Assembly: GCA_047632435.1 (NCBI GenBank)
Contig: JBLICU010000005.1
Span: 15 to 64,014, forward strand
DNA: 64,000 nucleotides
Reading direction: 5' to 3'
Source: Cyclobacteriaceae bacterium
Lineage (GTDB): Bacteria; Bacteroidota; Bacteroidia; Cytophagales; Cyclobacteriaceae
Shown here: positions 15,513-34,948 of the stretch, piece after piece
Position numbering within the stretch: the first letter of the stretch is position 1
Layout of the letters: every line of letters starts with the position of its first letter
Program-made: the position numbers and the translations under genes
Notes under the pieces: generated by a model
The model's input: only the letters and a program-made list of their open reading frames with translations
Database searches by the model: none
What the model was told of the DNA's origin: nothing

Positions 15513-15514
15513 GT

Positions 15515-17410: not shown

Positions 17411-17475
17411 CCTCCCCTCTTGCCAATTAGCCATATGAGTTTTAATTTTTATCTATTTATCCTTGTCTATTCTCT

Positions 17476-20394
17476 TTAATATTTGATGATTCTTTCAGTA
17501 TATCGGTGACCAAAAACGTCGGTAAACCGAATCATATAGATACCTCGCTCGATTCCGCTCAGGTCAATCCGATCGCCTACAAGCTCACTTTGAGTAAGCA
17601 CCTTCACTTCTCTACCTTTAAGATCATATATACTCACAGCGTTAATGGGTGATTCACTTTGAAAGTTGAGATCTGTAGATGTAGGATTAGGGTATGTTTT
17701 GAATGTAGAAATCACTTTTTTAACTTCCGGTCCGGAGATCGCCATCCTTGCTCCAGAATTCAAAGTAATTTCCAGATAAGGTCTAAAGCCTGTGTTGGTA
17801 TTTTCAGAACTATAAAGCTGCGCCAATGCCCCGCTTTCCGCATCGTCACTCAACTTAATAGAGATTACACCATCTATTCCCAACTGCGTGTTAACAGCAG
17901 AGCCTATATCCAGTGTGTACCAGCTATTACTTGTGCCAACGCTTAGATCTCCGAGTGAATACGAGACTCCAGGTGCTGAATTATACGTGACAGTGGACTC
18001 ACTCCAGCTATCGGTGGCAGCTTTATATACATCTATGTTCATACTATAATCAGCATTTCCATAAATATTAAAAACAGCTGAAGCAACGCTACTGACTCCA
18101 AGTGAATTCATGTCAAATTTCAAAAAAGCCTCCCTCCTAAAGTTGACATTGGTAGTCCCTTTCACAGCCAATGTCTGTTCAGAACCATAGTTTGTGCTCG
18201 CGTAAGTTCCTGCACGGACGTAAGCATCATCACCAGGTGAAACAGCCGTAATTGTCGTACCCGCAACCACCAGGTAGGCCTTATATTGACTTTGCGTATT
18301 TTCTTTGCTGTAGAGATCTATGGTTTTGACGAGTCCCGCATCGTCCATCAGTCCAATCGAAAAGGTGCCGTTCCCGGTCATTTCATCCTGCGCAGCACTT
18401 GTCACATCCAGCTGTATCCAGCCATCGGACGTACCTACCGATGCGGCTGATATTAGCGAAGTAAATGAAGGGGCATTGCTCCAGTTGACAGTGGATTCAG
18501 TCCAGGTATCAGAAGATGCTTTGTAAGCATTGATATTCATATTTAGCTCCGCATTTCCGTACACAAACAAATGCGCTGAAGTAATTGCGCTATAGCTTGT
18601 CAGGTCAAACTTCAGGAGTGTCCTCCGAGTGAAACTGGCATTGCTACTTTCCTTCACCGTTAATAATTGTTCACTCCCATAATTTGTGCTGCTGTATGAT
18701 CCGCCTCTGATATGTGCATCTTCATTTACGTAAAGCGTGTCGCCCCCAGTACTGGCTGTACTCACTTGGTGCACACCTCTGTCAACAGGAGCCAGTGTAG
18801 CAATCTCGTTTTGATAATAATCTTCATCCGGGATAGATGCTATCCGAATGCCACTACCCAATGCTGGAGAACCTGACCCTAATTCATAGCCACTATCCCC
18901 TCCACCAGGATTGGACAGCAATGGATCTAAAGTGAGACCATTATTGTCCGTTGGCACATTTGACGCTGTATTGCCATAGAAGGTATTGTAAGCAAACAGA
19001 TTATCCGTGCTACTGGTGAACTCATAGGTACTATTTGATCCCAGGTTATAAAAAATATTATTGTAATAGGACGTATTATCTGGATAGCTACCGCTCCAAC
19101 CTTTGTGAAAAACAATCTTGGTAGAATCCTGGGAGCTACTTAAATAGATCACATTGTTGTGAAAGGTTGTATTAGTGGCCGCCCCAGAAGATCTTAAAAC
19201 AAACCACTTATCGTCCCCGTACCTTTTTACTTGTCCATCACGCTCGAAAATATTATACCTGACTATGGTTCCATCATTAAAATCCCCAGGACCTCCTGTT
19301 ACAAGCATCCCAAAATCATTATCGTGAAGATAGTTGTATTGGATAATAGTCCCTTTGGTGCGATAGTCACTATCTACTCCACCTGCATCATGATCTCCTA
19401 CATTCGCTTTTGTATATTCAAATTCATTGTATTGCCAGATGGTATTATCCGTATTAAAATTAAACGCAGCATTTCCAGACTCTTTTATTGAACAATGGTC
19501 AAAATGACAATTTTCAATCACTGCATTATCAGCTACTCTAACTATCAAGGCATTTGCTCCAGTGCGCTCAAAACTAGTGTTTCGTATCACCAAATTAGTT
19601 GTTGGTGTCCAATCGGTGTTGGTTGACAAAGTCCTATTATCATAATCTGATTCATTGGAAATACCCGTGCGATCTACATCATGGATGTAGCAATCTTCAA
19701 TCAGAATGTCATCGAAGTACGTTGGGGTTTCGGAACCAAAATTGAATATGCGAAAGAAAATTCCGCCGTTGTGTTTTTGCGAAATCTGGCCATTTACACC
19801 ATGTACTTCCAAATTAATAAAATGCAATTGACTCAATTCCCCTACATCATTGGCCTGAACCAGTACACCACATTTCTTCGTATTCGTGCCCGTGTACTTA
19901 CCCGGATTCGTGACATTCGCATAATCCGTTTCATTGTCACTTTCCCACTCACTTAGCGTAATGCTTGACTCTTCACTTGAGTCATAATTGGTAATTTCAA
20001 GATCTCGGATAACCCAATATTCCTGATTGTAGAGAAGTATGGTGCAATACTTTGTCTGACCAGGCTCCACGGTACAATTCGAGGATCCATCCCCATTGAG
20101 TGCTGGTCTACTGCCACTGCCGTACATTCCTATTACAATAGGGTTACCTGATGAACCAGAACCTTGTGGTTTTATCGTTCCGGTCCATGATTGACCCGCT
20201 TTAAAAAGGATACTATCTCCCGGCTGAAAAGTAGTCGTGTTAATATTTGCAAGTGTTTCCCATGCTGCCATCTGCGAAGTTCCACTATTGCCATCATCTC
20301 CTGAGACAGAGTCAATGTAGTAGTTGGTCGCAAGACAAGGCCATGCTGCACTGAGCATTATAATGGCCAATAAGCGTTGAGCGTGTTTCATCAT
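17476..20394 (-). CDS. Right-handed beta-helix enzyme + two DNRLRE (CBM96-like) modules + T9SS CTD (paralogue 2)
   Basis: Same catalytic-domain motifs as paralogue 1. Two modules of form DA[HY][IV]R.G.Y...NYGSE...R...LKFD at ~18270-18745 and ~17760-18250. CTD TYPNPT...RGIYMI. Confidence 0.85.
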   Translation of the reverse strand: MMKHAQRLLAIIMLSAAWPCLATNYYIDSVSGDDGNSGTSQMAAWETLANINTTTFQPGDSILFKAGQSWTGTIKPQGSGSSGNPIVIGMYGSGSRPALNGDGSSNCTVEPGQTKYCTILLYNQEYWVIRDLEITNYDSSEESSITLSEWESDNETDYANVTNPGKYTGTNTKKCGVLVQANDVGELSQLHFINLEVHGVNGQISQKHNGGIFFRIFNFGSETPTYFDDILIEDCYIHDVDRTGISNESDYDNRTLSTNTDWTPTTNLVIRNTSFERTGANALIVRVADNAVIENCHFDHCSIKESGNAAFNFNTDNTIWQYNEFEYTKANVGDHDAGGVDSDYRTKGTIIQYNYLHDNDFGMLVTGGPGDFNDGTIVRYNIFERDGQVKRYGDDKWFVLRSSGAATNTTFHNNVIYLSSSQDSTKIVFHKGWSGSYPDNTSYYNNIFYNLGSNSTYEFTSSTDNLFAYNTFYGNTASNVPTDNNGLTLDPLLSNPGGGDSGYELGSGSPALGSGIRIASIPDEDYYQNEIATLAPVDRGVHQVSTASTGGDTLYVNEDAHIRGGSYSSTNYGSEQLLTVKESSNASFTRRTLLKFDLTSYSAITSAHLFVYGNAELNMNINAYKASSDTWTESTVNWSNAPSFTSLISAASVGTSDGWIQLDVTSAAQDEMTGNGTFSIGLMDDAGLVKTIDLYSKENTQSQYKAYLVVAGTTITAVSPGDDAYVRAGTYASTNYGSEQTLAVKGTTNVNFRREAFLKFDMNSLGVSSVASAVFNIYGNADYSMNIDVYKAATDSWSESTVTYNSAPGVSYSLGDLSVGTSNSWYTLDIGSAVNTQLGIDGVISIKLSDDAESGALAQLYSSENTNTGFRPYLEITLNSGARMAISGPEVKKVISTFKTYPNPTSTDLNFQSESPINAVSIYDLKGREVKVLTQSELVGDRIDLSGIERGIYMIRFTDVFGHRYTERIIKY

Positions 20395-20443
20395 TTTAGG
20401 GTTTTTGGGTTAGTTAAATTTTAACGCCGAATCTGATTCTCCC

Positions 20444-22522
20444 TTAAGGCTTCATGATTCTGGTTGCGTAAACATGCTGGTCAATATCCAATGCATGAAT
20501 GATATATATCCCGGGATTCAAGAAGCTTAAATCCATTGATAACTGATTTGAATGAATATCTTTTAATTGGTAAACTATCGCACCTTTCATATCCACCACC
20601 TTAATTCCCACAAAGGCTTTGCCCGATTGAAGTTTGAGTGCTCCATTTATTACAGGGTTTGGGTAAATCCGTAATTCATCCATGGGCAAATCAAAATCTG
20701 CTTCCAGATTCTTAAATACTGCACCAGTACGCGATCCACTGGAAAGCTGATCTGTGACGTAATCCACCAATATATATGGCCTTACATGCTGATACGTCTG
20801 ATTCTCCTTACTGGTTACCTTGAGTTGTGACGTGGTTACAGCATTGTCCTTCAGACCTATGGAAACAATCGAATCACTCTCATATTCCTGATTCACAAGG
20901 CTTGTAGCAAAAACAGTGTAGCTCTTGTAGGAACTACCTTCCACAGGTAGTGTATAGAATTTATTGCTCATGGCCGGGCGATTATTCCAAGATAAACTTC
21001 CTTCTGCCCAGTCATCCGCGGCTCCATAGAAACCCACCTCAAAACTTTCATTGTCATTCACATAACCATTGATTTTCAGACTCGCGTCAACGATATAACC
21101 GTTAATCCCTTGTAGGTTGAATTTTAAATAGGTTCTTCGGGTGTAACCAGAAGTAGTGATTTCCTTGACCCGCAAAAGATCTTCTGTACCGAAGTTGGTA
21201 TCTCCAAAACTCCCATCCTGAACATGTGCATCCTCGGTAACCCAAATCGTGTCCTGCATGTACTGATAGCCATACTGCATTTCCAATACTTTGCTGGCAT
21301 ATCTTCTTCCCAGGATCCGCTGGCTTTCAGAATCAAAATGCGTACTATCAAAAGCCATTAAACCGAAGGACTCCACAATATCAGTGTTGGCAACAGAATC
21401 AGGTAACGTCCTAATTAACTTATTAAAATTGGAATTTTCAGGTCTTAGCTGACTGATTTGCCCTGCAATAAACGATAGGTTTGGCATGTCCAGTGTATCT
21501 CTAAAATCAGTGATTAAAGACTTCAACTTGGATAAGTAAGTCAGGGTATCATTCTTATTACTTTCTCCTTGGTGCCAAAGAATTCCTTTGAGTTGCGTAT
21601 TGGGAAGGGCTAGCGCTGCGCTGATACGGACATAAGCAGAATCAAAATAGCCCGCATTTGCACCTTTGAGCCATTCATTGATATTGGAACCCCCTCTCGC
21701 ATTCACAACCAGGCCTATGTCCTTGCCTGTCACCCTGTGCACCATTTCACCAAAAGTATAGGCATAACCCAATTTCTGGTGAACTAAATCTTTGCGTATT
21801 GTTGAATAAGCGTTCAATGGATTTTTAGCCGGAATCCAACTGTTTACATCATTCAAGAGATAAACATCGTTTAAAGAGACTGTATCCTGTGCTTCAATTT
21901 CGGCTCTTCCGGCTGTATTCGATTGACCAATGATAAAATAGACATCCTTTGTTGCCGACTCACCTTCCACCACCAAACGCGCTTTGTATTGACTTGAGCT
22001 ATTCTCTTTGCTATACAAAAAAACAGTTTTGACTAGCGAAAAATCATCCTTCAGCCCGACGGAGAACGACTTATTTCCCCCGTTCATTTCATCCTGTGCA
22101 GCCGATGTAACATCGAATTCAACCCATTGATCAGTTGTAGTAACTATTGCAGAATCTATGAAGGCATTGAAAGATGAAGCGTTGTTCCAGGTAAGGGTAG
22201 ACTCAGACCAAGTATCAGGATATACCTTGTATGCACTTACGGTCATCTCTTGTTGGGCACTCCCATAGACCAATAACTTTGCTGAGGAAATAGCCCTATA
22301 AGCTCCCAAATCAAATTGCAAATAAGTCCTACGGGTGTAGGAAGCATTATTACTTTCCTTGATCTCCATCTTAATTGCGTCTCCATGGTTGTCATTGCTA
22401 TAGGAACCTCCACGGATATGCGCGTCCTGATCAATATAAAGCGTATCAGTGACCATACTGAAAACTATATTTGCAATAAAAGCAAAAACACTAAAAAGCA
22501 ATATTCTAAATAGTAGATTCAC
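20444..22522 (-). CDS. DNRLRE - SASA/CE6-like acetylesterase - DNRLRE - T9SS CTD
   Basis: SGNH-type GQSN (catalytic Ser), WHQGESN and DSTH (DxxH), flanked by two DNRLRE modules. CTD IYPNPV...PGIYII. GTG start. Confidence 0.85.
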   Translation of the reverse strand: MNLLFRILLFSVFAFIANIVFSMVTDTLYIDQDAHIRGGSYSNDNHGDAIKMEIKESNNASYTRRTYLQFDLGAYRAISSAKLLVYGSAQQEMTVSAYKVYPDTWSESTLTWNNASSFNAFIDSAIVTTTDQWVEFDVTSAAQDEMNGGNKSFSVGLKDDFSLVKTVFLYSKENSSSQYKARLVVEGESATKDVYFIIGQSNTAGRAEIEAQDTVSLNDVYLLNDVNSWIPAKNPLNAYSTIRKDLVHQKLGYAYTFGEMVHRVTGKDIGLVVNARGGSNINEWLKGANAGYFDSAYVRISAALALPNTQLKGILWHQGESNKNDTLTYLSKLKSLITDFRDTLDMPNLSFIAGQISQLRPENSNFNKLIRTLPDSVANTDIVESFGLMAFDSTHFDSESQRILGRRYASKVLEMQYGYQYMQDTIWVTEDAHVQDGSFGDTNFGTEDLLRVKEITTSGYTRRTYLKFNLQGINGYIVDASLKINGYVNDNESFEVGFYGAADDWAEGSLSWNNRPAMSNKFYTLPVEGSSYKSYTVFATSLVNQEYESDSIVSIGLKDNAVTTSQLKVTSKENQTYQHVRPYILVDYVTDQLSSGSRTGAVFKNLEADFDLPMDELRIYPNPVINGALKLQSGKAFVGIKVVDMKGAIVYQLKDIHSNQLSMDLSFLNPGIYIIHALDIDQHVYATRIMKP

Positions 22523-22538
22523 ATTGTTCGTTTAATGG

Positions 22539-24185
22539 TTAGAAATTAATTCCAATATTGAGGCTGTCCGCATGAATGCGCTTACCCTCGTAATCTTTGG
22601 TTGGCATCTTAATCAATTCAATCCCTGTATTTCGTAAAAGGGAATTTTCAGATGGCACATAGCCATCATTATCTGATTTGAATAGTTCACGCACATCAAC
22701 AATATTAGCATCTCTCGATGGCCATGACCGTACCGGCTTGTTCGCAATCACATTGTTTTCAAAGTGGTTTTCAGTACTTTCAGTCATCTGGAGATAGGTA
22801 CCCACCCCATCATTAATAATAACGTTATTATAATAGGTGGACTTAGATGGATAGCCGCCCCAGTTTTTATGATAAACTGCTGCGCGACCTTTCTGCTTCG
22901 AGCCAATTTTAAAAATATTATTATGAACCCATGTGTTCGTTGCATTTCCAGAAATCTTAAATGAGTAGTCCAATCTACCATCTGAAGTATCTCTTGTGAT
23001 GCCATCATTTTCAAAAATATTGAATCTGACAATTGTTCCTTCATTGAACCCTCCAAAGCTCCTTTGACCGCCTGTAACGAGTGGCCCAAAATCATTGTCA
23101 TGAATATAATTGTATTGCATGATGGTCCACTTCGTCCGAAAATCACTGTCAATACCACCGGCATCATGGTCACCAATGTTGTATTTTGTAAATCGACCTT
23201 CATTATATTGAAGCAAAGCACTATCAGTGTTAAATACAAAAAAAGCATTGCCACTCTCCTTTATGGCACAGTGATCGAAAAGGTTATTTTCAATTATTGG
23301 TTTGTCAGCCACACGGAGTATCAGTGCATTCGCACCTGTTCGTTCAAACCGGCAATTTCTAACTATATAACCCAGCGATGGAGTCCAATTATCAATAGAA
23401 TCAAGCGTGCGATTTTCATAGTAAGATGAATTTGAAATTCCAGTTCTGTCAACATCATGTATGTAACAGCTGTCAAATACCAATCCATCAAAATAGGTTG
23501 GTTTTTCAGATTCCGAACCTAGAATTTCAAGAAAAATACCCCCATTATTTTTGGTTCGAATGTCCCCATTTATTCCGTGAATATATAGGTTATTATAAGT
23601 TAGGTTGTGAATAGCACCATAGTTTCTGGCTTGTACGAGAATTGCGCTTTTTCTTTTTCTGGGTTGTTGATACTGTTTTGGGTGATAATAATTAGCAAAG
23701 CTGTCAATATTATGTTGCTCCCATTTCGTGAGCGTGATTCCTTCCTCTTGCTGATCATAGTTGGTGATTTCAAGATCTCTTATTGCCCAATATTCCTGGT
23801 TGTAAAGGAATAGCGTACAGAAATGCTCATCTTCAGCTTCCGGAGTACAGTTGTAAGCGCCTTGCCCCTGTATTTTAGGGGCTTTCCCTTCGCCATATTT
23901 ACCCATTGTTATAGGTTTATTTGGAGCGCCTGATCCTTTTGGCAACAATGTCCCTGACCATTCACAACCAGCCTTGAAGAGCAGCTTATCACCAGGCTCG
24001 AAAGTAACCTGATTTACCCGCTCAAGTGATTGCCATGCTTCGGCAGCACTCGTGCCTTCATTAAGATCTGAACCTGATTCACAGTCAACATAATAGCTAA
24101 TGACTGTCACTTCCTGACAGGAAAATAGACATATCACGGCAGCTACTAAATAGCATAATCGAACATATAAAAAAGAACCAGTCAT
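22539..24185 (-). CDS. Lipoprotein right-handed beta-helix enzyme (paralogue 3)
   Basis: LFSC lipobox, YYVDCESGSD...PGDKLLFK and DAGGIDSD. No CTD. Confidence 0.85.
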   Translation of the reverse strand: MTGSFLYVRLCYLVAAVICLFSCQEVTVISYYVDCESGSDLNEGTSAAEAWQSLERVNQVTFEPGDKLLFKAGCEWSGTLLPKGSGAPNKPITMGKYGEGKAPKIQGQGAYNCTPEAEDEHFCTLFLYNQEYWAIRDLEITNYDQQEEGITLTKWEQHNIDSFANYYHPKQYQQPRKRKSAILVQARNYGAIHNLTYNNLYIHGINGDIRTKNNGGIFLEILGSESEKPTYFDGLVFDSCYIHDVDRTGISNSSYYENRTLDSIDNWTPSLGYIVRNCRFERTGANALILRVADKPIIENNLFDHCAIKESGNAFFVFNTDSALLQYNEGRFTKYNIGDHDAGGIDSDFRTKWTIMQYNYIHDNDFGPLVTGGQRSFGGFNEGTIVRFNIFENDGITRDTSDGRLDYSFKISGNATNTWVHNNIFKIGSKQKGRAAVYHKNWGGYPSKSTYYNNVIINDGVGTYLQMTESTENHFENNVIANKPVRSWPSRDANIVDVRELFKSDNDGYVPSENSLLRNTGIELIKMPTKDYEGKRIHADSLNIGINF

Positions 24186-24223
24186 ACTTTAAAGGAAATA
24201 ATTTAAAAGGATTTAAATATTAG

Positions 24224-24253
24224 AGAAGTGAGATGATCCCTCATCTCACTTCT
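24224..24253. terminator. Intra-operonic hairpin (attenuator or mRNA-stability element)
   Basis: AGAAGTGAGATGA-TCCC-TCATCTCACTTCT with perfect 13-bp arms, between the surface lipoprotein gene and the enzyme genes. Confidence 0.6.
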
Positions 24254-24266
24254 TTCTAATTGTTTA

Positions 24267-25280
24267 TTAACGCGCAGCAATACTTACTTCATCCACAGCT
24301 ATACCTCTAGAATAAGTCCCCTCAGGAAGGTCTGCTTCTATTTTGAATTTCAAATTTCCATCTATATCAGCAGTTCCATTGATTGTATACATCGTATAAA
24401 TACCACTATCACCGGTTCCATCAGTGAATGCATTATCCATTGTGTCTCCACCGGTAAAACTCGCATCCAATCCTCTTTCTGAGCTACCATGGAGTCTCAG
24501 CCAATACGTAACAGTGGCTGGCTGACCTGCTTCCAATCCACTTACAGCAATTTCAACTGAAGTACCCGGGCCTTGCACAGAAAATGCATTTCCACAATTT
24601 CCATCTGTATCGTCATTATTATCAGCATCTGCTACACCGTCTGAGGCTGTGTCTGTGCACATTGCTCTTTGAGATTGTACCCTTGCACCAATGTCTGTAT
24701 TAGTGTCATCTCCATCATTATAATGCGTAATGGCATAAGCCACAGTCAATCCTTCCATGACAGTACCGGCAGACTCTAAATCTTCTACGAACAGCTCGCT
24801 TCCATGTCCACCATCACCTGACGTACTGGATTTGCCCATTTCAAAGCCACTGGAATATATTACAGTACCTGCATCAAGGAAAGTAATAGGCACTGCAGTA
24901 ACATTGGCGGTAACATCAATGATTTCAGTCAAATCGCCAGATGATACGGTGATTTCTCCAGTAACTGCACCAAGAGTTGCTTCCAGACTTGGCGCAAAAG
25001 TAAGAGTAACCGTGTTCAAGGCATTCGCAATAGGAAATACCGTTTGACTTAAACTGAAACCTTTTCCCGTTACGGATAGCGTTACAGTTCCAGTTATATT
25101 CTCACCCGTCACAGTAAACTCTTTCGTAGCAGTAACCCCAGCTTGTACATCTCCAAAAGCTAAGGATGAAGCGCTTAAGGTTACTACGGGATCTGGAGCG
25201 GGCTCATCTTCGCTGCATGAGATAAATCCTATGCAAGAAATAAAAAGGATAATGAGTAAATAGTTTTTAGAAGATTTCAT
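24267..25280 (-). CDS. Surface lipoprotein, candidate glycan-binding protein (SGBP)
   Basis: FISC lipobox followed by acidic residues, an Ig-like beta domain and a C-terminal beta-sandwich with a Cys-flanked Asp-rich loop. Lies directly downstream of susD. Confidence 0.7.
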   Translation of the reverse strand: MKSSKNYLLIILFISCIGFISCSEDEPAPDPVVTLSASSLAFGDVQAGVTATKEFTVTGENITGTVTLSVTGKGFSLSQTVFPIANALNTVTLTFAPSLEATLGAVTGEITVSSGDLTEIIDVTANVTAVPITFLDAGTVIYSSGFEMGKSSTSGDGGHGSELFVEDLESAGTVMEGLTVAYAITHYNDGDDTNTDIGARVQSQRAMCTDTASDGVADADNNDDTDGNCGNAFSVQGPGTSVEIAVSGLEAGQPATVTYWLRLHGSSERGLDASFTGGDTMDNAFTDGTGDSGIYTMYTINGTADIDGNLKFKIEADLPEGTYSRGIAVDEVSIAAR

Positions 25281-25359
25281 AATTTAAAGTTGTTTAGTTT
25301 GTACATATTAGTTTAATAAAATATCTAGTTTACTGGGCATGTATTTAATTCAAGAGGTT

Positions 25360-27024
25360 TTAATAACTAGGGTTATTACTTATTTTGAAATCAAGATTTG
25401 CATCAATAAAAGATTGCGGAATCGGAAATAGCTTATCTCTTTCTATCATTTTTCCAGATGCATTTACATTGTACAGATTGGTTCTTTCAATCCATTTATT
25501 ATTTCTGAGTAGCGTGTATCTCCTATGCTCTTCCGAAAAAAGCTCCCGAGCTCGCTCATCTAAAATAAGATCAATGTCAATTTCTGCCGGAGTTACTTGA
25601 GTTGCATTGGCACGATTTCTTAATTCATTGATATAGAATGCAGCATTGTTAGGGTCACTATTTTTGAAATACGCCTCTGCCAATAAGAGATAAGTATCAG
25701 CAAGCCTTAGATAAATCTGATCATTAAAAGCTCTGCTTTCGCTTGGATCAACCACATGTGACCAATCCCACTTACGAGTGTAGGGTCTAATTCTATCTCC
25801 AAGAGGATCCTCCGGGGTGAAGTCCAGCCATAATGTATCACCGACACTTCCAGCTGTGGATGGATCTTCTTCGCTCACTACAAAATAAGTCCGCCAGCTA
25901 AACTCATCGCCCCTATCATCTATCACCACCCCATTGTTATCCCGATAAAGATCAAACACAAACTTGGTGGCTGAAAGACGAGTATTTCCTCTACCACCTC
26001 GATCTATGGTGACAGCCAACCCAGGAGCTCCGCCACTAGAACTGCTATACTCACTCATGAACCATCGTCTCATGATATTGTGCCCTTGTCCTCCTTCCAC
26101 TTCATATTCATTTTGTAGCACCCACAAGGCTTCTGTATTACCCTCACTCGGATTGGAATTGCCGCTCAGAAACATATCACTATAAGGAGTTCCTGGAAAC
26201 GAAGAATTTACACCATATCTATTAGTTACAAGTGAGCGAGAACCTCCTATGGCTTCAAGTGCTAATGAAATAGCCGCAGAATACTCCTCCTCGATTATCA
26301 ACAATTCAGTTAAATAGTGCTGAGCCACAGCTTTGATAATCTTACCATCATTTAAATGAACTTCTGGTAAGTGCATGACCGCAAATTCTAAATCCTCTTT
26401 TATAAATTCTCGAATATCAGCAACAGATGTTCGTTCCCAGTCAAGACGAACATTTTCACCCGTAGATTCCTCCTTGACCAAAGGCACATCACCATATAGA
26501 AAGGTAAGATGACGGTACGCCCACGCTCTCATGGTTTTGGCTTCACCTGAAATTCTATTCAAAGTACTTTCATCAATACCTCCTCCTCCAAATTGATCTG
26601 CTCTATTGATTATGGTGTTGGAAGCATTGATAATTTCATATAACCAATTCCATGTCCCACTGAAGTATCCTTGAGCAGCATTTCCCAATACTTGCTCTCC
26701 CCAATCATTGAGGAAAAGTTCAGCATTCCATGGTCGGTTGCCGTAGATGATGTCCGTTCCAGCCATCATCATTGCACATGTCAGGTTATTACTATTGCCA
26801 GTAGGGTTACTATTACTTGGTAGTCCGGCTCGTTCAACACGTGCCAGCGCATAGAGGCCATTTAGTCCTGCATCAAACCCCACCTCATCTACATAGAGAT
26901 TATCAGGTGCTATGACATGAGGGATTTCTTGATCTAAGAATTGGTCTTGACATGACACACTAACCAAGATGGTAACTGCCAAAATGAATGTTTTGATTAT
27001 GTAATGTTGGGGTTGCTTTTTCAT
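25360..27024 (-). CDS. susD: SusD/RagB-family glycan-binding lipoprotein
   Basis: SVSC lipobox, GEAKTMRAWAY..L...YGDVP, YLRLADTYLLLAEA and DERARELFSEEHR...L.R. Confidence 0.93.
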   Translation of the reverse strand: MKKQPQHYIIKTFILAVTILVSVSCQDQFLDQEIPHVIAPDNLYVDEVGFDAGLNGLYALARVERAGLPSNSNPTGNSNNLTCAMMMAGTDIIYGNRPWNAELFLNDWGEQVLGNAAQGYFSGTWNWLYEIINASNTIINRADQFGGGGIDESTLNRISGEAKTMRAWAYRHLTFLYGDVPLVKEESTGENVRLDWERTSVADIREFIKEDLEFAVMHLPEVHLNDGKIIKAVAQHYLTELLIIEEEYSAAISLALEAIGGSRSLVTNRYGVNSSFPGTPYSDMFLSGNSNPSEGNTEALWVLQNEYEVEGGQGHNIMRRWFMSEYSSSSGGAPGLAVTIDRGGRGNTRLSATKFVFDLYRDNNGVVIDDRGDEFSWRTYFVVSEEDPSTAGSVGDTLWLDFTPEDPLGDRIRPYTRKWDWSHVVDPSESRAFNDQIYLRLADTYLLLAEAYFKNSDPNNAAFYINELRNRANATQVTPAEIDIDLILDERARELFSEEHRRYTLLRNNKWIERTNLYNVNASGKMIERDKLFPIPQSFIDANLDFKISNNPSY

Positions 27025-29969
27025 TATAGGCTGAAGTTTAATCCGAAAACAATTTCCTTTTGCAATGGCACTGATCGTTGGCTACTTAACTCTGGATCTA
27101 GTCCTGTCCAATCTGTTATTGTGATTAGATTTCTTAATGTCGTATAAACTCGTAATCCAGAAATACCTGTCTTACCAAGCAAGGAATCATTAAAAGTGTA
27201 GGATAATGTAATGTCCTTGACTCTCATAAAATCTGCACTTTGATAGAATCCGACATTATAGATATTAGCTTGGGGATGATTTCTGTGAAAGGTTTTAATA
27301 GGATCTTCTTGAGTCCAATAGTCTAATACAAACCAGTTTCGCTTTACACCACCATAGACGTTTTCATCGTAAATGGTATTTCTCTTGGTTACTCCTTCTA
27401 CACCATGTATGAAAACATACAATGAAAAGCCTTTATACTTTAACGTATTAGTAAGTCCCCAGGTAGTTTTTGGGTCTCGCTGACCTTGAATAGCTCGGTC
27501 ATGTTCTGAAGATATTCCAAGGACTGGATTACCATCTGTATCAATTGGGTTGTCAATATCTTTTACTTTCACATCACCTGGATGAGCATTAGGTTGAGCA
27601 CTCTCTGTTGCATCTTCACCCTCTTGCCAGATTCCATCAAACACCAAACTATAATTTGATCTTATAGGCTTTCCAATGAATAATCCATTTCCGATATCGT
27701 CTTGATTTTTCCCGAATAGGGAAACAATCTCATTACGGTTGAAGGACATATTTCCTGCAATATTCCAGGTGAAATCCTTTTTATTTATCGCAAATCCTGA
27801 GGTAGATAGCTCAATACCTTCATTCTGAACTTTACCAATATTCTGAGTGATCTCTGTAATCCCATGGACGGAAGGGATGAGTCTATCCAGCAGCAAATCT
27901 GATGTGCTGGCTCTATAAATATCTGCTGAAAACTGAACACGATCAGAGATGAGTCCTAGATCTAAACCAAAATTGAGGGTTGCCGTTTTCTCCCAACTCA
28001 ATTCATTATTAGCTAATTGATTTGGTACAAACCCCGGTGCAGTTTGACTTCCATTTAAATAAGAGCGATCGCTCAAGCGGGCTAAATTATCATAAGGTCC
28101 CACTGCCTGATTGCCATTCTCTCCGTAAGAGATTCTGAATTTAGCTTTGCTCACGAAACTAGTAGGGAAAAAAGCTTCATCTCCTATATTCCAACCTACT
28201 GCTACTGACGGGAAAATTCCGTACTTGTTTTCATCTCCGAAACCTGAAAACCCATCTCGTCTTACAGTCATGGTTACCATGTATTTATCAGCATAGCCAT
28301 AATTGACCCTAGCCATTTGAGATAGAAGTGTTGTTTGGGTGAAACTGCTTGATGGACTTATTCCTACTGCTAGATGATTTTGATAGTAGGTAAGTAAGTC
28401 ACTTGGGAAACCTACTGCATCTACTCCGTTATCTTCTGATTTGATCTTTTGAGCACTGTAAAGCCCCGTGAATCCGATAGAGTGCTTCCCAAATGTAGCA
28501 GAGTAGTTTAAGATATTTTCTAGCAAAAAGTTTTCATCTGATTGATTGCTCACCTGTGCATCCCCTCCTGATGTAAAACCTCTAGCTGTATTCCTTCCCC
28601 AGTAGGTACCAATCTTTCTTGCACCCACTTCTATACCAGTATTAATCTTGTAGGACAACCCTTCAAGAAAAGGAAATGAATACATTAGGTAATTGGTTGT
28701 GAAAATTTTATTATTTATATCGTCATTCACCGCTAGCGTGGGTGCCAACGCGTTTTCGAAAAACTGATCCTCTGGCCAAGGGAAGATGGTAGGGCTACCA
28801 TCACTATCATATGCTGAACTCAGAGGATTGAGAAAATAAGCTCCAGCAGCTTCTCCCCCAAAGTCTGGATCTAAACCAGACCTATCAATTCTGGAAAGCT
28901 GAGTAGAAGTACCGAATTTCAGATCCTTGGTAATATCAAAACTGAGATTAACTCTCAACGATACTCGATTAAAGTTATCATTAATAGCTACACCCTGAGC
29001 ATCCAGATAACCCATGGACACATAATATTTGGCATTATCAGTCGCACCAGAAACTGACAAATTATGCTCTTGCTTAACTCCTGTCTGTGTAGCGAGAGAA
29101 AGCCAATCAGTGCCTTTACCTTGGGCAAGTAGATCAAGCTCTGATGGAGTGAGCTCACCTGGCTCCCTTGTTTCTTTGAATGCGGCAAAGCCAGGTCCAT
29201 CATATACGGCTGGAACATTGCCAATATCGGAGATACCAATATATCCACTATAGGTGATTTTAGGCTGACCTTTTGTGCCTTCTTTTGTTTGAATTAAAAT
29301 CACACCATTAGCTCCTCTCGATCCATAAATTGCTGTTGCAGATGCGTCTTTCAAGACAGTCATATTTTTAATATCTGACGTATTGATATCAGAAATACTA
29401 CCCGCATAAGGCACGCCATCAAGAACGATTAGAGGGGAGTTGGAAGCATTGATTGAGTTCCTACCTCTAATCAAAATGCTTACATCATTTTGCTCGGCAC
29501 TAGAGGAATTAAGTGTTATGTTAACTCCAGGCAAAGCACCTTGAAGCGCTTGGCTAAAATTGGTGTTTGGCTTGGCATCTATTCTATTCACATCAATCGA
29601 TGCTACCGAACCTGTTAAATCACTTTTCTTTTGAGACCCATATCCTACAACAACAATTTCTTCAAGTGCGTGAATGTCATCTGGAAGCACAAAATTGATT
29701 AAGGATCTTCCACCCACCTTTGCTGTTTTACTTTCAAAACCTACAAAGGAGGCTATAAGGTTTGCTTCGGGATTCACCATAATTTGGTAATTTCCATTCA
29801 CATCTGTTACAGTTCCATTATTTGCACCAACTTCTTGAATGGTGGCCCCAGGTAATGGCTCACCGTTTGAATCTTTAACAACTCCTGTCAATTGAATTGA
29901 AGAATTCTGTGCATTTAGGTTTGTCAATATGACGAATAAAAAAATAATTTGCGTAAGGTATCTCCTCAT
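27024..29969 (-). CDS. susC: SusC/RagA TonB-dependent transporter
   Basis: CarboxypepD-like N-terminus, EEIVVVGYG, LKDASATAIYGSRGANGVILI, WEKT and C-terminal GLNFSL. Confidence 0.96.
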   Translation of the reverse strand: MRRYLTQIIFLFVILTNLNAQNSSIQLTGVVKDSNGEPLPGATIQEVGANNGTVTDVNGNYQIMVNPEANLIASFVGFESKTAKVGGRSLINFVLPDDIHALEEIVVVGYGSQKKSDLTGSVASIDVNRIDAKPNTNFSQALQGALPGVNITLNSSSAEQNDVSILIRGRNSINASNSPLIVLDGVPYAGSISDINTSDIKNMTVLKDASATAIYGSRGANGVILIQTKEGTKGQPKITYSGYIGISDIGNVPAVYDGPGFAAFKETREPGELTPSELDLLAQGKGTDWLSLATQTGVKQEHNLSVSGATDNAKYYVSMGYLDAQGVAINDNFNRVSLRVNLSFDITKDLKFGTSTQLSRIDRSGLDPDFGGEAAGAYFLNPLSSAYDSDGSPTIFPWPEDQFFENALAPTLAVNDDINNKIFTTNYLMYSFPFLEGLSYKINTGIEVGARKIGTYWGRNTARGFTSGGDAQVSNQSDENFLLENILNYSATFGKHSIGFTGLYSAQKIKSEDNGVDAVGFPSDLLTYYQNHLAVGISPSSSFTQTTLLSQMARVNYGYADKYMVTMTVRRDGFSGFGDENKYGIFPSVAVGWNIGDEAFFPTSFVSKAKFRISYGENGNQAVGPYDNLARLSDRSYLNGSQTAPGFVPNQLANNELSWEKTATLNFGLDLGLISDRVQFSADIYRASTSDLLLDRLIPSVHGITEITQNIGKVQNEGIELSTSGFAINKKDFTWNIAGNMSFNRNEIVSLFGKNQDDIGNGLFIGKPIRSNYSLVFDGIWQEGEDATESAQPNAHPGDVKVKDIDNPIDTDGNPVLGISSEHDRAIQGQRDPKTTWGLTNTLKYKGFSLYVFIHGVEGVTKRNTIYDENVYGGVKRNWFVLDYWTQEDPIKTFHRNHPQANIYNVGFYQSADFMRVKDITLSYTFNDSLLGKTGISGLRVYTTLRNLITITDWTGLDPELSSQRSVPLQKEIVFGLNFSL

Positions 29970-30120
29970 ATAGGGGTTGTTTTAATTAAATTGATTCAGT
30001 ACAAATAAATCACAAACAAAATCATGGTCAACAAAAGAGCGCCAATTACAAAAAGTCTGAATGGTAATTTCATATGGCTATGATAGCCTAATTAAATATT
30101 TCTCCTCACAGGAGCTGGAT

Positions 30121-30175
30121 TCATTTTAACCTGACTACCGATACTTACGCATTTTCCATGTATCATTTTAACCTG
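30121..30175. promoter_or_regulatory. 13-bp direct repeat, candidate HTCS operator
   Basis: TCATTTTAACCTG at 30121-30133 and 30163-30175 (42-bp period), in the divergent susC/HTCS intergenic region. Confidence 0.55.
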
Positions 30176-30236
30176 CCAAATGTTTCATCACAGCCTAAAA
30201 GCTTGAATTTGTATCCTTCAATGGTTTTGGTTACCA

Positions 30237-30309: not shown

Positions 30310-33300
30310 ATGTTAAAGTCATTTCTCCATGTGATAATTCTTAACCTAGCTGTTTTAGCAGGTTCATTCGGGGCAGATCAAATACAATTTGATCATATAA
30401 TTGAACTTCCCGACAACCCTGTCTTTTGTATAACACAAGACAAAAAAGGTTTTATGTGGTTCGGAACCAAAAATGGTCTTTTGAAATTTGATGGTCATGA
30501 ATTAACCACATTTAACTCAAGTGATGACGACAGCACATCCCTCACCAATGATTGGATTTGGTCAATTTACTGTGACACCCGGTCTGAACTATGGATCGGC
30601 AGTGCGGACGGTCTTAATCTTTGGATAGACAAAGAAAATCGATTTCAAAGAATCGTACTTCCTTCATCGGAAAACGGGAAGAACAAGCCAGTTACCATAA
30701 GAAAAATATATGAAGATAAACAAGGAAATCTGTGGATCGGAACCAATCATGGCCTTTATATTAAATCCTATGATAATCCGGATTTCCATAAATGTGACTT
30801 AAGCTATGGACTGAGTCAATTAACAGATTATGATATCAAAGAAATATTCGAGGGCTCGAACAATCATTTGTATGTCGCAACACAATTTGGTATTTCCTCA
30901 ATTGTTAATAGAAAACTTTCGTATCAAACAATTCCGGCCAACCTAGTTCTTAAAATTGATAATCAAATTGAGGATACAAGATCTGTATACTCCGACGCAA
31001 TAAATGATGTTTTTTGGATCGGAACCCAGTCAGAAATGACTGGTCTTATAAAATCACAAAACCGAAGTGGTAAAAATGAGATAATTACGTTAAAAGGATC
31101 CGTCGAAATTAATAGTATCAGAATAATCCGAAATTTTGGAGATAATACCCTTTGGTTAGGAACAATGAACGGGTTGATACAACTAGATACTCTGACTAAT
31201 ACTACTGAAAAACACTTAAACCACCTTTCAATTAGAGATATTTACCAGGATATCGAAAAAGGGCTCTGGGCGGCCACATACAATGATGGAATATATTACT
31301 ATTCGCCAAATTCCAACCGATTTGAGCATATTTATGAATACGCCAAGCCATTCTCCACACAAGAACAAAACCGAAGTGAGGTGGTCACTGATGTCGTACA
31401 ATCGAAGGACAATCAAATATGGATCGGTACAGAATATGGTCTCAAAGTCTATAGGCCTGACCACAAGAATTTTCCTATTCATTTAAATAGAACAATGCAA
31501 ACAGCTATTGTCAATGATCGTGTAAAATGTCTTGAATATACGAATGATAATATGCTTTGGGTGGGGACATTTAATGGAATTAGCTGTCTCGATTTAACAA
31601 ACGGAAATATAAAAAACTATGTTCCAACATCTAACCCTAAAAATCAGGGTTGGAATGAAATCCATGATCTAATAAAGATTAAGGAAGAGGTGTGGATTGG
31701 TACAAATGGTGGTGGGGTATTTTGCCTTGATAGAGATTTTCGCTTCACACAACATGCCGACCATTTTATTCGAGGAGCGAATTATGTAAACGCTATGCAT
31801 TCCTTTACTGATAGTATCATTTGGATAGGCTCAAATGCCGGATTAAGTGCTATCAAACCTGATGGTAGGGAATTTAAAAAATTTGGATCCAGCAATTATA
31901 TGTTTCCAGAGGTGAACGTAATTTCCATAACACATGATAATAAAAATAATTTATGGTTGGGTACTGAAAGATCAGGACTGATTTACTTTGATCCACAGTC
32001 TTTCGATTTTCTAAGGATCAACAAGGAGAATGGTTTACCGGATAATAACATAAAGTCGGTACAAATTGATGTATCTCAAAACCTTTGGGTCACCACACAA
32101 CAAGGACTTCTAAACATTTCTCTATCGCCCAAAGAAGATCTTCAATCAACATCTTTTGAGGTTTATGATTTTTCTATCAATACAGATTTTGGCAAACCAC
32201 TATTCTTAAGTAATAGCACAACCAAAACGTCATCTGGAGAAATACTTTTTGGAACACATCATGGTATTACCTATTTTGATCCATCTCAAATATCAAGTTC
32301 CCGCAAGTACCCTAAAGTATGGATAAGGGATATCAGTATAAACCAGCAAAAAATAACCATTAACAAGGATTTATCATTGAAATATGGCAATACTGAAGAA
32401 TTGCTTGTGTTGAGTCTGGAACATTACGAGTCTGTTCTATCGTTTTACTTCACGGGCATTAATTATAGTAATCAAGATGAGCTTTATTATGCATACAACA
32501 TAGATGGAATTAATGATAGATGGGAGATAATTAACAAACAGCGTCAGCTAAGCTTCAATTACCTACCACCAGGAAAGTATACATTAAGACTTAAATCAAG
32601 CAATTCAAAACAAAATTGGGGAAGTGACTACACCGCATTAGACCTCATTATAAATCCTCCTTTTTATAAGTCGCTGATTGCTTTTCTTATTTATGGGGTA
32701 ACCATTTTAGCACTACTTTATATATTCTTCTATTACTCTTCCAACTGGCAAAAAATGAAAAATCGCCTTGTAATCGAAGAACTTAATAAGAACAAAGAAT
32801 ATGAACTTCATCAGTTAAAATCGGAGTTTTTTATTAATATTTCTCATGAGCTCAAAGCACCATTGACGTTAATTCTTGCCCCAGTTGAGGATTTACTAGC
32901 TCAAAAAATTGAAAATACTGGAGTGCGCAACCGATTAAAAATGGTCAAACGAAACGCTGAGAGGATTTTGAAATTGGTAAATCAAATTGTGGATGTAAGG
33001 AAAATTGAAACCTCTCGTGAGAGCTTAAATGTAGCTAAATACGACATTATAGCATTCATTCATGAGGTTTCTTCAGTGTTCAATGAATTATCCAGAATCA
33101 AAAATATTGAATTCAATATAAGTTCTAGCAGTGAAAATATTGATCTTTGGTTCGATCGAAATAAATTAGAAACAGCCATTTCGAATCTCCTCTCAAATGC
33201 GTTTAAATACACCAAAGAAAACGGTAAAATTGAAGTGTCTATTGTCACTCAAAAAAGGTCAAAAGGGTTAGATGAAGATGATCAGGTTAATATTATCATT

Positions 33301-34389
33301 GAAGATAATGGGAAAGGAATAGCTCAGGAAGATATCCCACATCTCTTCGACCGTTTTTATCACATTTCAAATAGAAATAAACGTCTTTCTATAGGTGATG
33401 GCATTGGGTTGGATTTGGCTAAAAAATGTATCGAAATACAAAAAGGTTCAATAAAAATTGAAAGTCTTCAGGAAAATGAAAGAACAAGTGGTCTTACTAG
33501 AATCACTATTTCCTTAAAACGAGGAAATCAACATTTTGATGATAATGACGTAACAAATGAGCCGTTACATCATTCATCAACTAAAGACCCTGATCTCAAT
33601 GACTATGCTCTCATAAACCTCATTGATGCAAAAGCTAGCGATAGCAATATTGATGACTATTCCATTTTGATTGTAGATATCAACTCTGAATCGATTCAAC
33701 AAATTCGTGATATATTTTCAAATTGCAATCATATATATGACACTTCTGATGGTTTGGAAGCATGGAAATTGACTCTGGATATAATTCCTGACATTGTAAT
33801 TAGTTCAGAAAGTGCCGGCACAATTGATGGAGAAGAATTATGTCATAGAATAAAAATAGATGAACGCACATGTCACATTCCTGTAATTCTTCTATCTGAA
33901 CAAAATCAATTTAATAATCAAGCTGAGTTTGTGCCTGATGAGTTTATTGCTAAACCAATTAATGCGGATTTTCTAAAGCAGAGAGTTGAATACTTTATTG
34001 ATCAAAGAAACAGAATAAGACGACAATTTGAAAAGAAATCAATATTGAAACCCAATCAGATAACTTCTTATGATGAGAAAATGTTAGATAGCGTAATCAA
34101 CTATATTGAGGATCACCTGTCCGACCCTAATCTATCTGTAGAGCGTATGAGCAAAGAAATTGGGATCAGCAGGGTTCATTTTTATAGAAAAATAAAATCA
34201 GTAATGAACATGTCCCCTAATGAATTCATCCGATCCTATCGAATAAGAAAAGCGGGACAATTGCTTGAACAGAAAAAACTTAATATTTCGGATGTTCGGA
34301 TGATGGTTGGTTTCAATGATGCAGATTACTTCAGATCTTGTTTTAAGAAAGAATTCGGTGTAAATCCTTCGGATTTCATGAAGGACTAA
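30310..34389 (+). CDS. Hybrid two-component system (beta-propeller sensor, Y_Y_Y, TM, HisKA, HATPase, atypical REC, AraC HTH)
   Basis: Repeated LWIGT propeller blades, YLPPGKYTLRLKSSN, SHELKAPLT, NLLSNAFKYT, DNGKGI and AraC (SKEIGISRVHFYRKIK...GFNDADYFRSCFKKEFG). Confidence 0.95.
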   Translation: MLKSFLHVIILNLAVLAGSFGADQIQFDHIIELPDNPVFCITQDKKGFMWFGTKNGLLKFDGHELTTFNSSDDDSTSLTNDWIWSIYCDTRSELWIGSADGLNLWIDKENRFQRIVLPSSENGKNKPVTIRKIYEDKQGNLWIGTNHGLYIKSYDNPDFHKCDLSYGLSQLTDYDIKEIFEGSNNHLYVATQFGISSIVNRKLSYQTIPANLVLKIDNQIEDTRSVYSDAINDVFWIGTQSEMTGLIKSQNRSGKNEIITLKGSVEINSIRIIRNFGDNTLWLGTMNGLIQLDTLTNTTEKHLNHLSIRDIYQDIEKGLWAATYNDGIYYYSPNSNRFEHIYEYAKPFSTQEQNRSEVVTDVVQSKDNQIWIGTEYGLKVYRPDHKNFPIHLNRTMQTAIVNDRVKCLEYTNDNMLWVGTFNGISCLDLTNGNIKNYVPTSNPKNQGWNEIHDLIKIKEEVWIGTNGGGVFCLDRDFRFTQHADHFIRGANYVNAMHSFTDSIIWIGSNAGLSAIKPDGREFKKFGSSNYMFPEVNVISITHDNKNNLWLGTERSGLIYFDPQSFDFLRINKENGLPDNNIKSVQIDVSQNLWVTTQQGLLNISLSPKEDLQSTSFEVYDFSINTDFGKPLFLSNSTTKTSSGEILFGTHHGITYFDPSQISSSRKYPKVWIRDISINQQKITINKDLSLKYGNTEELLVLSLEHYESVLSFYFTGINYSNQDELYYAYNIDGINDRWEIINKQRQLSFNYLPPGKYTLRLKSSNSKQNWGSDYTALDLIINPPFYKSLIAFLIYGVTILALLYIFFYYSSNWQKMKNRLVIEELNKNKEYELHQLKSEFFINISHELKAPLTLILAPVEDLLAQKIENTGVRNRLKMVKRNAERILKLVNQIVDVRKIETSRESLNVAKYDIIAFIHEVSSVFNELSRIKNIEFNISSSSENIDLWFDRNKLETAISNLLSNAFKYTKENGKIEVSIVTQKRSKGLDEDDQVNIIIEDNGKGIAQEDIPHLFDRFYHISNRNKRLSIGDGIGLDLAKKCIEIQKGSIKIESLQENERTSGLTRITISLKRGNQHFDDNDVTNEPLHHSSTKDPDLNDYALINLIDAKASDSNIDDYSILIVDINSESIQQIRDIFSNCNHIYDTSDGLEAWKLTLDIIPDIVISSESAGTIDGEELCHRIKIDERTCHIPVILLSEQNQFNNQAEFVPDEFIAKPINADFLKQRVEYFIDQRNRIRRQFEKKSILKPNQITSYDEKMLDSVINYIEDHLSDPNLSVERMSKEIGISRVHFYRKIKSVMNMSPNEFIRSYRIRKAGQLLEQKKLNISDVRMMVGFNDADYFRSCFKKEFGVNPSDFMKD

Positions 34390-34743: not shown

Positions 34744-34754
34744 GATTATCAAAG

Positions 34755-34828
34755 TGATCCGCTCGGGACTCGAACACGAAACCTACTGCTTAGAAGGCAG
34801 TTGCTCTATCCAATTGAGCTAGCGGACC
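34755..34828 (-). tRNA. tRNA-Arg (anticodon TCT)
   Basis: Acceptor stem GGTCCGC/GCGGATC, anticodon arm ACTGC-CTTCTAA-GCAGT and T-loop TTCGAGT. One T-C mismatch in the T-stem. CCA not encoded. Confidence 0.92.
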
Positions 34829-34861
34829 ATCGAACTACATTTCCCTTCGGATGAAGTAGTG

Positions 34862-34948
<87 letters not shown>

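Follow-up and report, generated by a model that had tools for sequence, protein, structure and literature searches.

An Aspartate-Less Pseudo-Receiver in a Predicted Hybrid Two-Component Regulator of Glycan Utilisation from Marine Cytophagales

Introduction

Glycan-utilisation loci in Bacteroidota are controlled mainly by hybrid two-component systems (HTCSs). In the accepted mechanism, a latch that joins the receiver to the DNA-binding domain is opened by intramolecular His-to-Asp transfer (PMC11253607). In Bacteroides HTCSs, the interface between these two domains keeps the AraC domain inactive, and phosphorylation releases it (Gao, Wu and Stock, PMC11253607; crystal structure in PMC13292587). 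Three elements mark the latch: S/CHIP, a motif of the α3-β4 loop; an α6 Asp; and an α8 Lys (PMC11253607). Here, we describe an HTCS gene in a 64,000-nucleotide stretch of DNA from a Cyclobacteriaceae bacterium (contig JBLICU010000005.1 of assembly GCA_047632435.1, positions 15 to 64,014; hereafter, the window). The encoded protein carries Ser1166 at the position of the phospho-acceptor Asp of its receiver, and it lies next to the polysaccharide utilisation locus (PUL) that it presumably controls.

Several described systems resemble this protein. The canonical Bacteroides HTCSs BT4124 and BT4663/BT1754 have an identical architecture, a SusC/SusD neighbour, and the S/CHIP…D…K latch. Compared with them, the present protein has Ser in place of the acceptor Asp, Ile in place of the second acidic residue, and a shorter α4. 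Its H-box also differs, with Ala for Thr at H+4 and Lys for Arg at H+3, and its receiver is the least, rather than the most, conserved cytoplasmic domain. Certain HTCSs of B. thetaiotaomicron also depart from the consensus. BT4236, which has Gln for the phospho-His, and other such proteins have been proposed to act independently of phosphorylation (PMC11253607). Those non-consensus HTCSs have a changed His or a changed latch (CSIP-EK, FHIP-QK), whereas here both are kept and the acceptor is lost.

Several percent of receiver domains overall are pseudo-receivers, and some of these occur in known hybrid kinases (PMC12632262, PMC4395418). CikA of Synechococcus and ShkA of Caulobacter combine a HisKA/HATPase kinase with a C-terminal receiver fold that cannot be phosphorylated and that acts through protein-protein contacts (PMC12632262); the kinase activity of the present protein is predicted. 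CikA and ShkA differ from it in having no DNA-binding output after the pseudo-receiver, in addressing partners in trans (RpaA for CikA and a true receiver for ShkA), and in having unrelated sensors. RitR, ChxR, HP1043, NblR, FrzS, and PleD-D2 likewise have a receiver fold without the acceptor Asp, a degenerate acidic pocket, and an output that is independent of Asp phosphorylation (PMC4395418, PMC12632262); FrzS and PleD are among the top PDB sequence and fold matches to the receiver studied here. Such atypical response regulators are mostly soluble and often orphan, whereas this pseudo-receiver shares one polypeptide with its cognate kinase, which is apparently active. Finally, BguR of marine Bacteroidota has an HTCS-type propeller/Y_Y_Y sensor and controls a PUL without phosphotransfer (bioRxiv 10.64898/2026.01.10.698779). 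BguR has lost HisKA, HATPase, and the receiver altogether and carries a GerE helix-turn-helix (HTH), whereas the present protein keeps all modules, with the acceptor site alone inactivated. By analogy, it is possible that this protein represents an intermediate state toward a BguR-like regulator.

In full-text literature searches, we found no description of an HTCS receiver that lacks the acceptor Asp while the kinase and latch are retained. This combination therefore appears to be new, although pseudo-receivers and phosphorylation-independent HTCSs are already known. According to a 2025 review, the switching of pseudo-receivers "remain[s] a mystery" (PMC12632262). The lineage described below is a natural experiment on how a pseudo-receiver is switched and on what a histidine kinase adds beyond phosphotransfer. 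For annotation, it means that the label "HTCS" is no guarantee of a phosphorelay.

Results and Discussion

The receiver active site

The gene, its receiver, and the acceptor position are located as follows.

30310-34389, plus strand: HTCS gene, 1359 amino acids (stop-free open reading frame, ORF, with translation; Pfam)
33658-34005, plus strand: pseudo-receiver domain, residues ~1117-1232 (12aw_A alignment, AlphaFold2 (AF2) model, Foldseek, clade alignment)
33805-33807, plus strand: codon TCA, encoding Ser1166 at the phospho-acceptor position (translation, 12aw_A alignment, residue map)

The best PDB sequence match of the receiver-AraC part is 12aw_A, a solved HTCS receiver-AraC structure (HMMER, E = 7e-15). 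This entry is probably BT4124's response-regulator part, whose structure (BT4124R) is described in PMC13292587. The HMMER alignment is ungapped through the active site, with PDIVISSESAGTIDG opposite PDLIISDVMMPVMDG, and it also sets ILIVDIN opposite ILVVEDN. The pairing therefore places Ser1166 on the acceptor Asp, Asp1123 on the first acidic residue, and Ile1124 on the second, metal-binding acidic residue. Of the equivalents of the CheY active site, Asp1123 is kept; the others are Ile1124, Ser1166, Ser1196 (Thr87 in CheY), Phe1212 (Tyr106), and Lys1215 (Lys109). An AF2 model of residues 1105-1359 (pLDDT 88) has a β1-β5/α1-α3, α5 topology. Because strand β3 spans residues 1162-1166 in this model, Ser1166 stands at the end of β3, like Asp57 in CheY. 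The receiver model superposes on the solved receivers DivK, CheY, FrzS, and VicR (Foldseek; target-normalised TM 0.8-0.9, rmsd ~2 Å); 12aw is absent among the Foldseek PDB matches, and the residue-level match to a BT4124-type structure rests on the HMMER alignment. A first-pass annotation of this DNA had placed Ser1166 at the acceptor position and had described an acidic pocket reduced to VDIN. The 12aw_A alignment bears out both readings and the AF2 model agrees with the first; no other Asp occupies the acceptor position.

The degeneration extends beyond the acceptor. In an alignment with the orthologues described below, which form an Asp-less clade of 11 rows, all five active-site positions vary. 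A substitute acidic acceptor was sought in the active-site loops of the clade, and no other acidic residue is invariant across it. Helix α4 is shortened by three residues in nine of the 11 rows; P0009 has a larger deletion, and an insertion offsets that of P0005. AF2 predicts no α4 helix here, and a canonical paralogue modelled with the same alignment has one. Alignment, modelled fold, and clade-wide comparison together establish the receiver of this lineage as a pseudo-receiver, predicted from its sequence to be non-phosphorylatable.

The residue directly after the former acceptor, Glu1167 (33808-33810), was also noted. Glu occupies this position in nine of the 11 clade rows, and canonical HTCSs have Ile or Val. 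Its side chain might place a permanent negative charge close to the former active site.

Extent and age of the Asp-less lineage

The 120 best homologues of the HTCS, a set that includes the window's own protein (P0002), were compared. Proteins P0003-P0011 (83-48% identity), among them those of Reichenbachiella carrageenanivorans and R. agarivorans, all lack the Asp; the acceptor position holds, in order, S, A, S, T, N, N, N, N, and N. From P0012 down (at most 43% identity), every homologue carries the canonical SD[IV]MMP motif. At the acceptor position itself, 109 of these 110 homologues show Asp, and the remaining one has a gap. An exhaustive HMMER search of 1.84 billion cluster representatives adds a single clade member, P0122 (Ala), with P0008 already in the set. 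Beyond the clade, the search score falls from 608 to 447 bits, and the other new 50%-identity representatives (136/136) are canonical at all five active-site positions. The Asp is likewise kept in a control set of paralogues, 94 of 94 HTCSs from unrelated loci (at most 32% identity), and in all seven other receiver-AraC hybrids of the same genome. The second hybrid regulator of the window (58231-60933, minus strand) retains PDLILTDYMMP, in keeping with the LTDYMMP that the first-pass annotation had reported. In all, the HTCSs checked outside the clade, about 340, keep the Asp, and the change is therefore not chance variation.

In a maximum-likelihood tree of the cytoplasmic region, the Asp-less sequences form one group with 100/100 support and a stem of 1.09 substitutions per site. 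Because all 10 members other than the window's own protein (48-83% identity) lack the Asp and the group is monophyletic at 100/100, the sequence record indicates that the acceptor loss is ancient and single, rather than decay in one strain. The lineage is small and monophyletic and lies within marine Cytophagales, where it comprises Marinoscillum-like genomes, Reichenbachiella genomes, and metagenome-assembled genomes. The genome studied here likewise belongs to a marine Cytophagales member near Marinoscillum; a thiolase encoded in the window shares 91% identity with its counterpart in an uncultured Marinoscillum. An orthologue was sought in 40 GTDB relatives, six of them of the same genus, and none was found (best match, 32% identity). 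The distribution therefore looks patchy, a pattern to which either loss or horizontal transfer could lead.

The variety of residues at the acceptor position bears on the Ser-based activation that the first-pass annotation had left open, taken here to mean that the receiver is regulated via a phosphorylated Ser1166, with a Ser/Thr kinase or the His as the phosphoryl donor. A Ser does stand exactly at the acceptor position, here and in P0003 and P0005. However, Ala in P0004 and P0122, Thr in P0006, and Asn in five sequences indicate that a hydroxyl is not selected at this site. The metal-binding Asp is also gone, and the remaining pocket residues vary. We consider a Ser-based switch very unlikely.

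Selection on the receiver

The ratio dN/dS was computed by domain against L094, the locus of an 83%-identical orthologue, which is the one usable pair because deeper pairs are dS-saturated. The values are as follows: receiver, 0.075; HisKA, 0.018; HATPase, 0.10; HTH, 0.043; sensor, 0.091; and linker between kinase and receiver, 0.36. The receiver value thus indicates that the pseudo-receiver is maintained by purifying selection.

The distribution of this constraint has changed. Among canonical HTCSs, no other domain is as conserved as the receiver (mean pairwise identity 0.65; ratio to HATPase 1.37). Its identity drops to 0.46 in the clade, and the ratio to 0.86, which makes it the least conserved cytoplasmic domain, while HisKA, HATPase, and the HTH are not relaxed. 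Conservation of receiver regions in the clade was then measured against size-matched canonical samples. It falls in the active-site loops (β1-α1, -0.46; β3-α3, -0.22; β4-α4, -0.42; β5-α5, -0.45) and, by 0.19 to 0.27, at α4/β5. The α3-β4 latch loop, by contrast with these regions, is the top-conserved part of the receiver in the clade (0.89), and α2, α5, the linker, and the DNA-binding domain are conserved at least at the canonical level. Judged from these comparisons, constraint on the receiver is redistributed rather than removed.

These data also address simple decay, in which the regulator would be turning into a pseudogene and the PUL would no longer be inducible. Two observations are in keeping with decay: the Pfam Response_reg match at residues 1119-1226 scores 26.1 bits, below the gathering score of 30.2, and the 40 sampled relatives, six of the same genus, contain no orthologue. 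Nevertheless, the ORF of 1359 codons is intact, the receiver is under purifying selection, and the Asp-less state is found in 10 divergent orthologues, each with a conserved PUL. Moreover, a promoter box described below is conserved in the five closest loci, and a related box occurs elsewhere in the two Reichenbachiella loci. The earlier suggestion that the system might be dying is refuted by the 10 orthologues, which reach down to 48% identity and belong to one clade with the same PUL type, and by the receiver dN/dS; we regard decay as extremely improbable. The orthologue comparison that the first-pass annotation had called for thus finds its D-to-S change as a loss shared by all 10 orthologues, in the form of S, A, T, or N.

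Domain architecture and the kinase

The remaining domains and kinase residues of the protein are listed below.

30400-32679, plus strand: periplasmic sensor, residues ~30-790, with Reg_prop repeats and Y_Y_Y (718-781) (Pfam)
32818-33012, plus strand: HisKA domain (dimerization and histidine phosphotransfer, DHp), residues 837-901, with the H-box SHELKAPL (Pfam)
32845-32847, plus strand: codon of His846 (residue map)
32854-32859, plus strand: Lys849 and Ala850, positions H+3 and H+4 (H-box comparison)
33154-33519, plus strand: HATPase_c catalytic (CA) domain, residues 949-1070 (Pfam, 7.7e-21)
34072-34386, plus strand: AraC-type DNA-binding domain, HTH_18 (Pfam, 2.9e-18)

From Pfam and the translation, the domain order is a signal/transmembrane segment, Reg_prop β-propellers, Y_Y_Y, a transmembrane segment, HisKA, HATPase_c, the pseudo-receiver, and the AraC HTH. 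The sensor matches are strong (Reg_prop, 4.4e-35; Y_Y_Y, 4.9e-15), and the hydrophobic segments that flank the sensor, at the N terminus and at ~790-812, were read from the translation. By its predicted architecture, the ORF at 30310-34389 is a full Bacteroidota HTCS, with a sensor bounded by membrane segments, HisKA and HATPase_c motifs, an AraC domain with a latch, and a SusC/SusD neighbour. The defining feature that it lacks is the receiver Asp that accepts the phosphoryl group in intramolecular transfer; the fold is present, with Ser1166 and Ile1124 in the active site. A pseudo-receiver, or aspartate-less receiver (ALR), is distinguished by a CheY-like fold from which the acceptor Asp, other phosphotransfer residues, or both are gone, and the present domain agrees with this in its modelled fold and in its residues. 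Since the protein lacks the acceptor Asp, one of the features that define an HTCS, it should, from its predicted features, be classed with pseudo-receiver regulators derived from HTCSs and not with functioning phosphorelays.

The first-pass annotation had judged the kinase core and the AraC HTH to be intact, and both judgements hold. The kinase has His846, Glu847, Asn963 (N box), the G1 box D999-x-G1001-x-G1003, the F box LFDRFY, and the G2 box G1029-D-G-I-G-L; the HTH has its HTH_18 match and the low dN/dS given above. Clade members show little or no variation in the His, the Glu at H+1, or the N, G1, F, and G2 boxes across an internal tree length of ~4 substitutions per site. We read this conservation as a sign that ATP binding is still under selection in the clade, and probably autophosphorylation as well. 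Two H-box positions behave differently. The residue at H+4 is Thr in 105 of 106 canonical HTCSs, whereas the clade has Leu in four sequences, Ala in three, Thr in three, and Ser in one. The residue at H+3 is Lys throughout the clade and Arg in 96 of the 106 canonical HTCSs. In HisKA proteins, the Thr at H+4 belongs to the E/DxxT/N motif and is required for phosphatase activity. We read its loose conservation as an independent sign that phosphoryl chemistry on the receiver is no longer selected. Together with the receiver active-site residues, the H+4 Thr could be used as a sequence flag for other HTCSs without receiver phosphoryl chemistry.

A kinase conserved over ~4 substitutions per site with no acceptor in cis might instead signal in trans. 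The phosphoryl group of His846 would then pass to another protein, either a separate response regulator or a second HTCS, through its receiver, and the pseudo-receiver would be an autoinhibitory or regulatory module of the kinase. CikA and ShkA, hybrid kinases whose pseudo-receiver gates autophosphorylation, provide examples of such a module (PMC12632262), and the seven other receiver-AraC hybrids of this genome, with their canonical Asp, offer candidate recipients. The protein's own AraC domain would in that case bind DNA independently or under secondary control. However, a partner response regulator was sought in the window and in seven orthologue loci, and none of these eight loci encodes one. 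Moreover, a bifunctional kinase that serves a dedicated partner would not usually leave the H+4 Thr unconstrained. In addition, the strong conservation of the latch and the DNA-binding domain implies that output in cis is still the selected function. Signalling in trans is, in our estimate, unlikely.

The latch between receiver and DNA-binding domain

The latch residues known from Bacteroides HTCSs can be assigned in the window.

33871-33882, plus strand: CHIP latch motif of the α3-β4 loop (Cys1188-His1189-Ile-Pro), by which the receiver contributes to the inhibitory interface (motif from PMC11253607)
34072-34074, plus strand: latch partner Asp1255 (residue map)
34189-34191, plus strand: latch partner Lys1294 (residue map)

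The CHIP motif is found here and, counting this protein, in seven of the 11 clade rows, and the whole subclade to which the protein belongs retains the latch residues. Since the latch is kept while the active-site loops are degenerate, selection appears to preserve the face of the receiver that holds the DNA-binding domain, and not the face that accepts phosphate.

An intact latch also bears on the constitutive behaviour that the first-pass annotation had considered. In such a case, the pseudo-receiver would be locked, possibly through the charge of Glu1167, and the protein would bind DNA constitutively, activating or repressing without a ligand, while control of the PUL would lie at some other level. 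The Glu at D+1 in nine of 11 clade rows, where canonical proteins have Ile or Val, would fit this proposal. Gao et al. propose that some HTCSs of B. thetaiotaomicron act without phosphorylation and, in part, as repressors (BT2391, and BT4236, in which Gln replaces the His) (PMC11253607), and several pseudo-receiver regulators, ChxR and HP1043 among them, are described as constitutively active. Against a lock, the inhibitory latch is intact in this subclade and the kinase motifs are conserved. Further, the sensor of 760 residues is present in all orthologues and is under purifying selection (dN/dS 0.09), which would be senseless if sensing were uncoupled from output. A locked regulator therefore seems to us distinctly improbable.

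A proposed mechanism of allosteric release

As the first-pass annotation had argued, activation would have to bypass Asp phosphorylation, given the pseudo-receiver that the sequence comparisons support. Of the routes that it had left open, allosteric activation is the best supported, with the latch kept and the active-site loops and α4 degenerate; action through another regulator and constitutive output are the lesser alternatives weighed above. We lean towards a functional PUL regulator that signals through its pseudo-receiver without His-to-Asp transfer, and in which the kinase dimer would open the latch allosterically. In this mechanism, the periplasmic propeller/Y_Y_Y sensor would still bind a glycan fragment, and the conformation of the DHp/CA kinase dimer would shift in response. 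The conformational state of the kinase would be handed directly to the tethered pseudo-receiver, replacing phosphotransfer from His to Asp. The handover would probably still need ATP binding or autophosphorylation of His846, because those motifs stay invariant. The pseudo-receiver would grip the AraC domain via the latch (Cys1188-His1189 with Asp1255 and Lys1294), and its movement would free this domain to bind a direct-repeat site in the susC promoter region.

Both halves of this proposal have precedents. In DesK-DesR, a response regulator is activated allosterically by its kinase without phosphorylation (PMC4251995). In BguR, an HTCS-type sensor drives a DNA-binding domain without any phosphorelay (bioRxiv 10.64898/2026.01.10.698779).

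Some observations weigh against allosteric release through the latch. The conserved His and ATP-binding motifs could equally serve trans-phosphorylation. In the Reichenbachiella subclade (P0007, P0008, P0010, and P0011; loci L001 and L098), the latch is altered to LNIP…E…K, and the equivalents of Thr87 and Lys109 are missing (Met, and Ile or Thr, respectively). The mechanism may therefore differ within the clade; with the joint replacement of CH…D by LN…E, the pseudo-receiver seems to have diverged there in a second step. The AF2 model does not discriminate a closed latch, as the pTM of the receiver-AraC fragment is 0.60 here and 0.58 for a canonical paralogue. Lastly, the dN/dS values come from the L094 pair, whose dS of 0.9-1.9 is near saturation though still estimable.

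A further possibility, which we offer tentatively and hold to be doubtful, is that the lineage is an intermediate in the passage from a phosphorelay HTCS to a one-component transmembrane regulator. The cycle of ATP binding and autophosphorylation would then serve only as the conformational engine for the latch, or else would supply phosphate in trans to other HTCS receivers. If the latter branch were true, one glycan would cross-regulate other PULs.

The PUL and a candidate operator

The genes and the candidate regulatory site upstream of the HTCS gene are as follows.

13686-29969, minus strand: PUL divergent from the HTCS gene (Pfam)
27024-29969, minus strand: SusC gene (Pfam)
25360-27024, minus strand: SusD gene (Pfam)
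30159-30188, plus strand: candidate operator in the susC-HTCS intergenic region, a direct repeat TGTATCAT-N14-TGTTTCAT with a 22-bp period (motif search)

The divergent PUL at 13686-29969 is presumably controlled by the HTCS. Beyond SusC and SusD, it encodes two unknown proteins without a Pfam match, a CBM96+SASA esterase, a CBM96 protein, a β-helix protein, and a GH2 protein (13686-25280, minus strand). Seven orthologue loci were fetched, and the HTCS ORF is intact in each. SusC/SusD genes lie upstream of all seven orthologues. They are directly divergent in the five Marinoscillum-type loci, and in the two Reichenbachiella loci a GH2 gene and an unknown gene stand between the HTCS gene and SusC/SusD. 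Genes for CBM96 proteins, SASA esterases, GH2 proteins, or sulfatases recur across the orthologue loci; each orthologue is flanked by the gene types of this PUL, in some loci together with sulfatases. The substrate of the PUL is probably an acetylated or sulfated algal glycan.

The direct repeat is the sole match to its motif in the window, where 0.02 matches are expected by chance. It is kept at the same place in L094 (9851-9880), L095 (9871-9900), L096 (9872-9901), and L099 (9849-9878). The conserved box has the consensus TGTwTCAT-N14-TGTTTCAT, and the core of its spacer, ACCnGnCA, is conserved as well. In both Reichenbachiella genomes, a related box is found upstream of the CBM96 gene (L001, 18317-18346; L098, 18295-18324). 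The box is a likely AraC/HTCS operator, and its conservation in the promoter region argues that the predicted DNA binding is still in use.

A second, shorter element was observed in the same intergenic region. The six intergenic regions that were aligned all carry the sequence ATTTTCAT without variation, at ~30050-30075 in the window and correspondingly in L094-L099. The element is not in frame with the listed susC start; it could belong to a promoter or, on the minus strand, begin a small upstream ORF.

Because the HTCS orthologue is missing from the 40 relatives sampled, the PUL may be an island that was acquired or is often lost; its GC content is not deviant, and GC content is uniform across the window. 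The edge of the PUL, directly downstream of the HTCS gene, carries two tRNA genes on the minus strand, tRNA-Arg(tct) at 34754-34828 and tRNA-Ser(gct) at 34861-34948.

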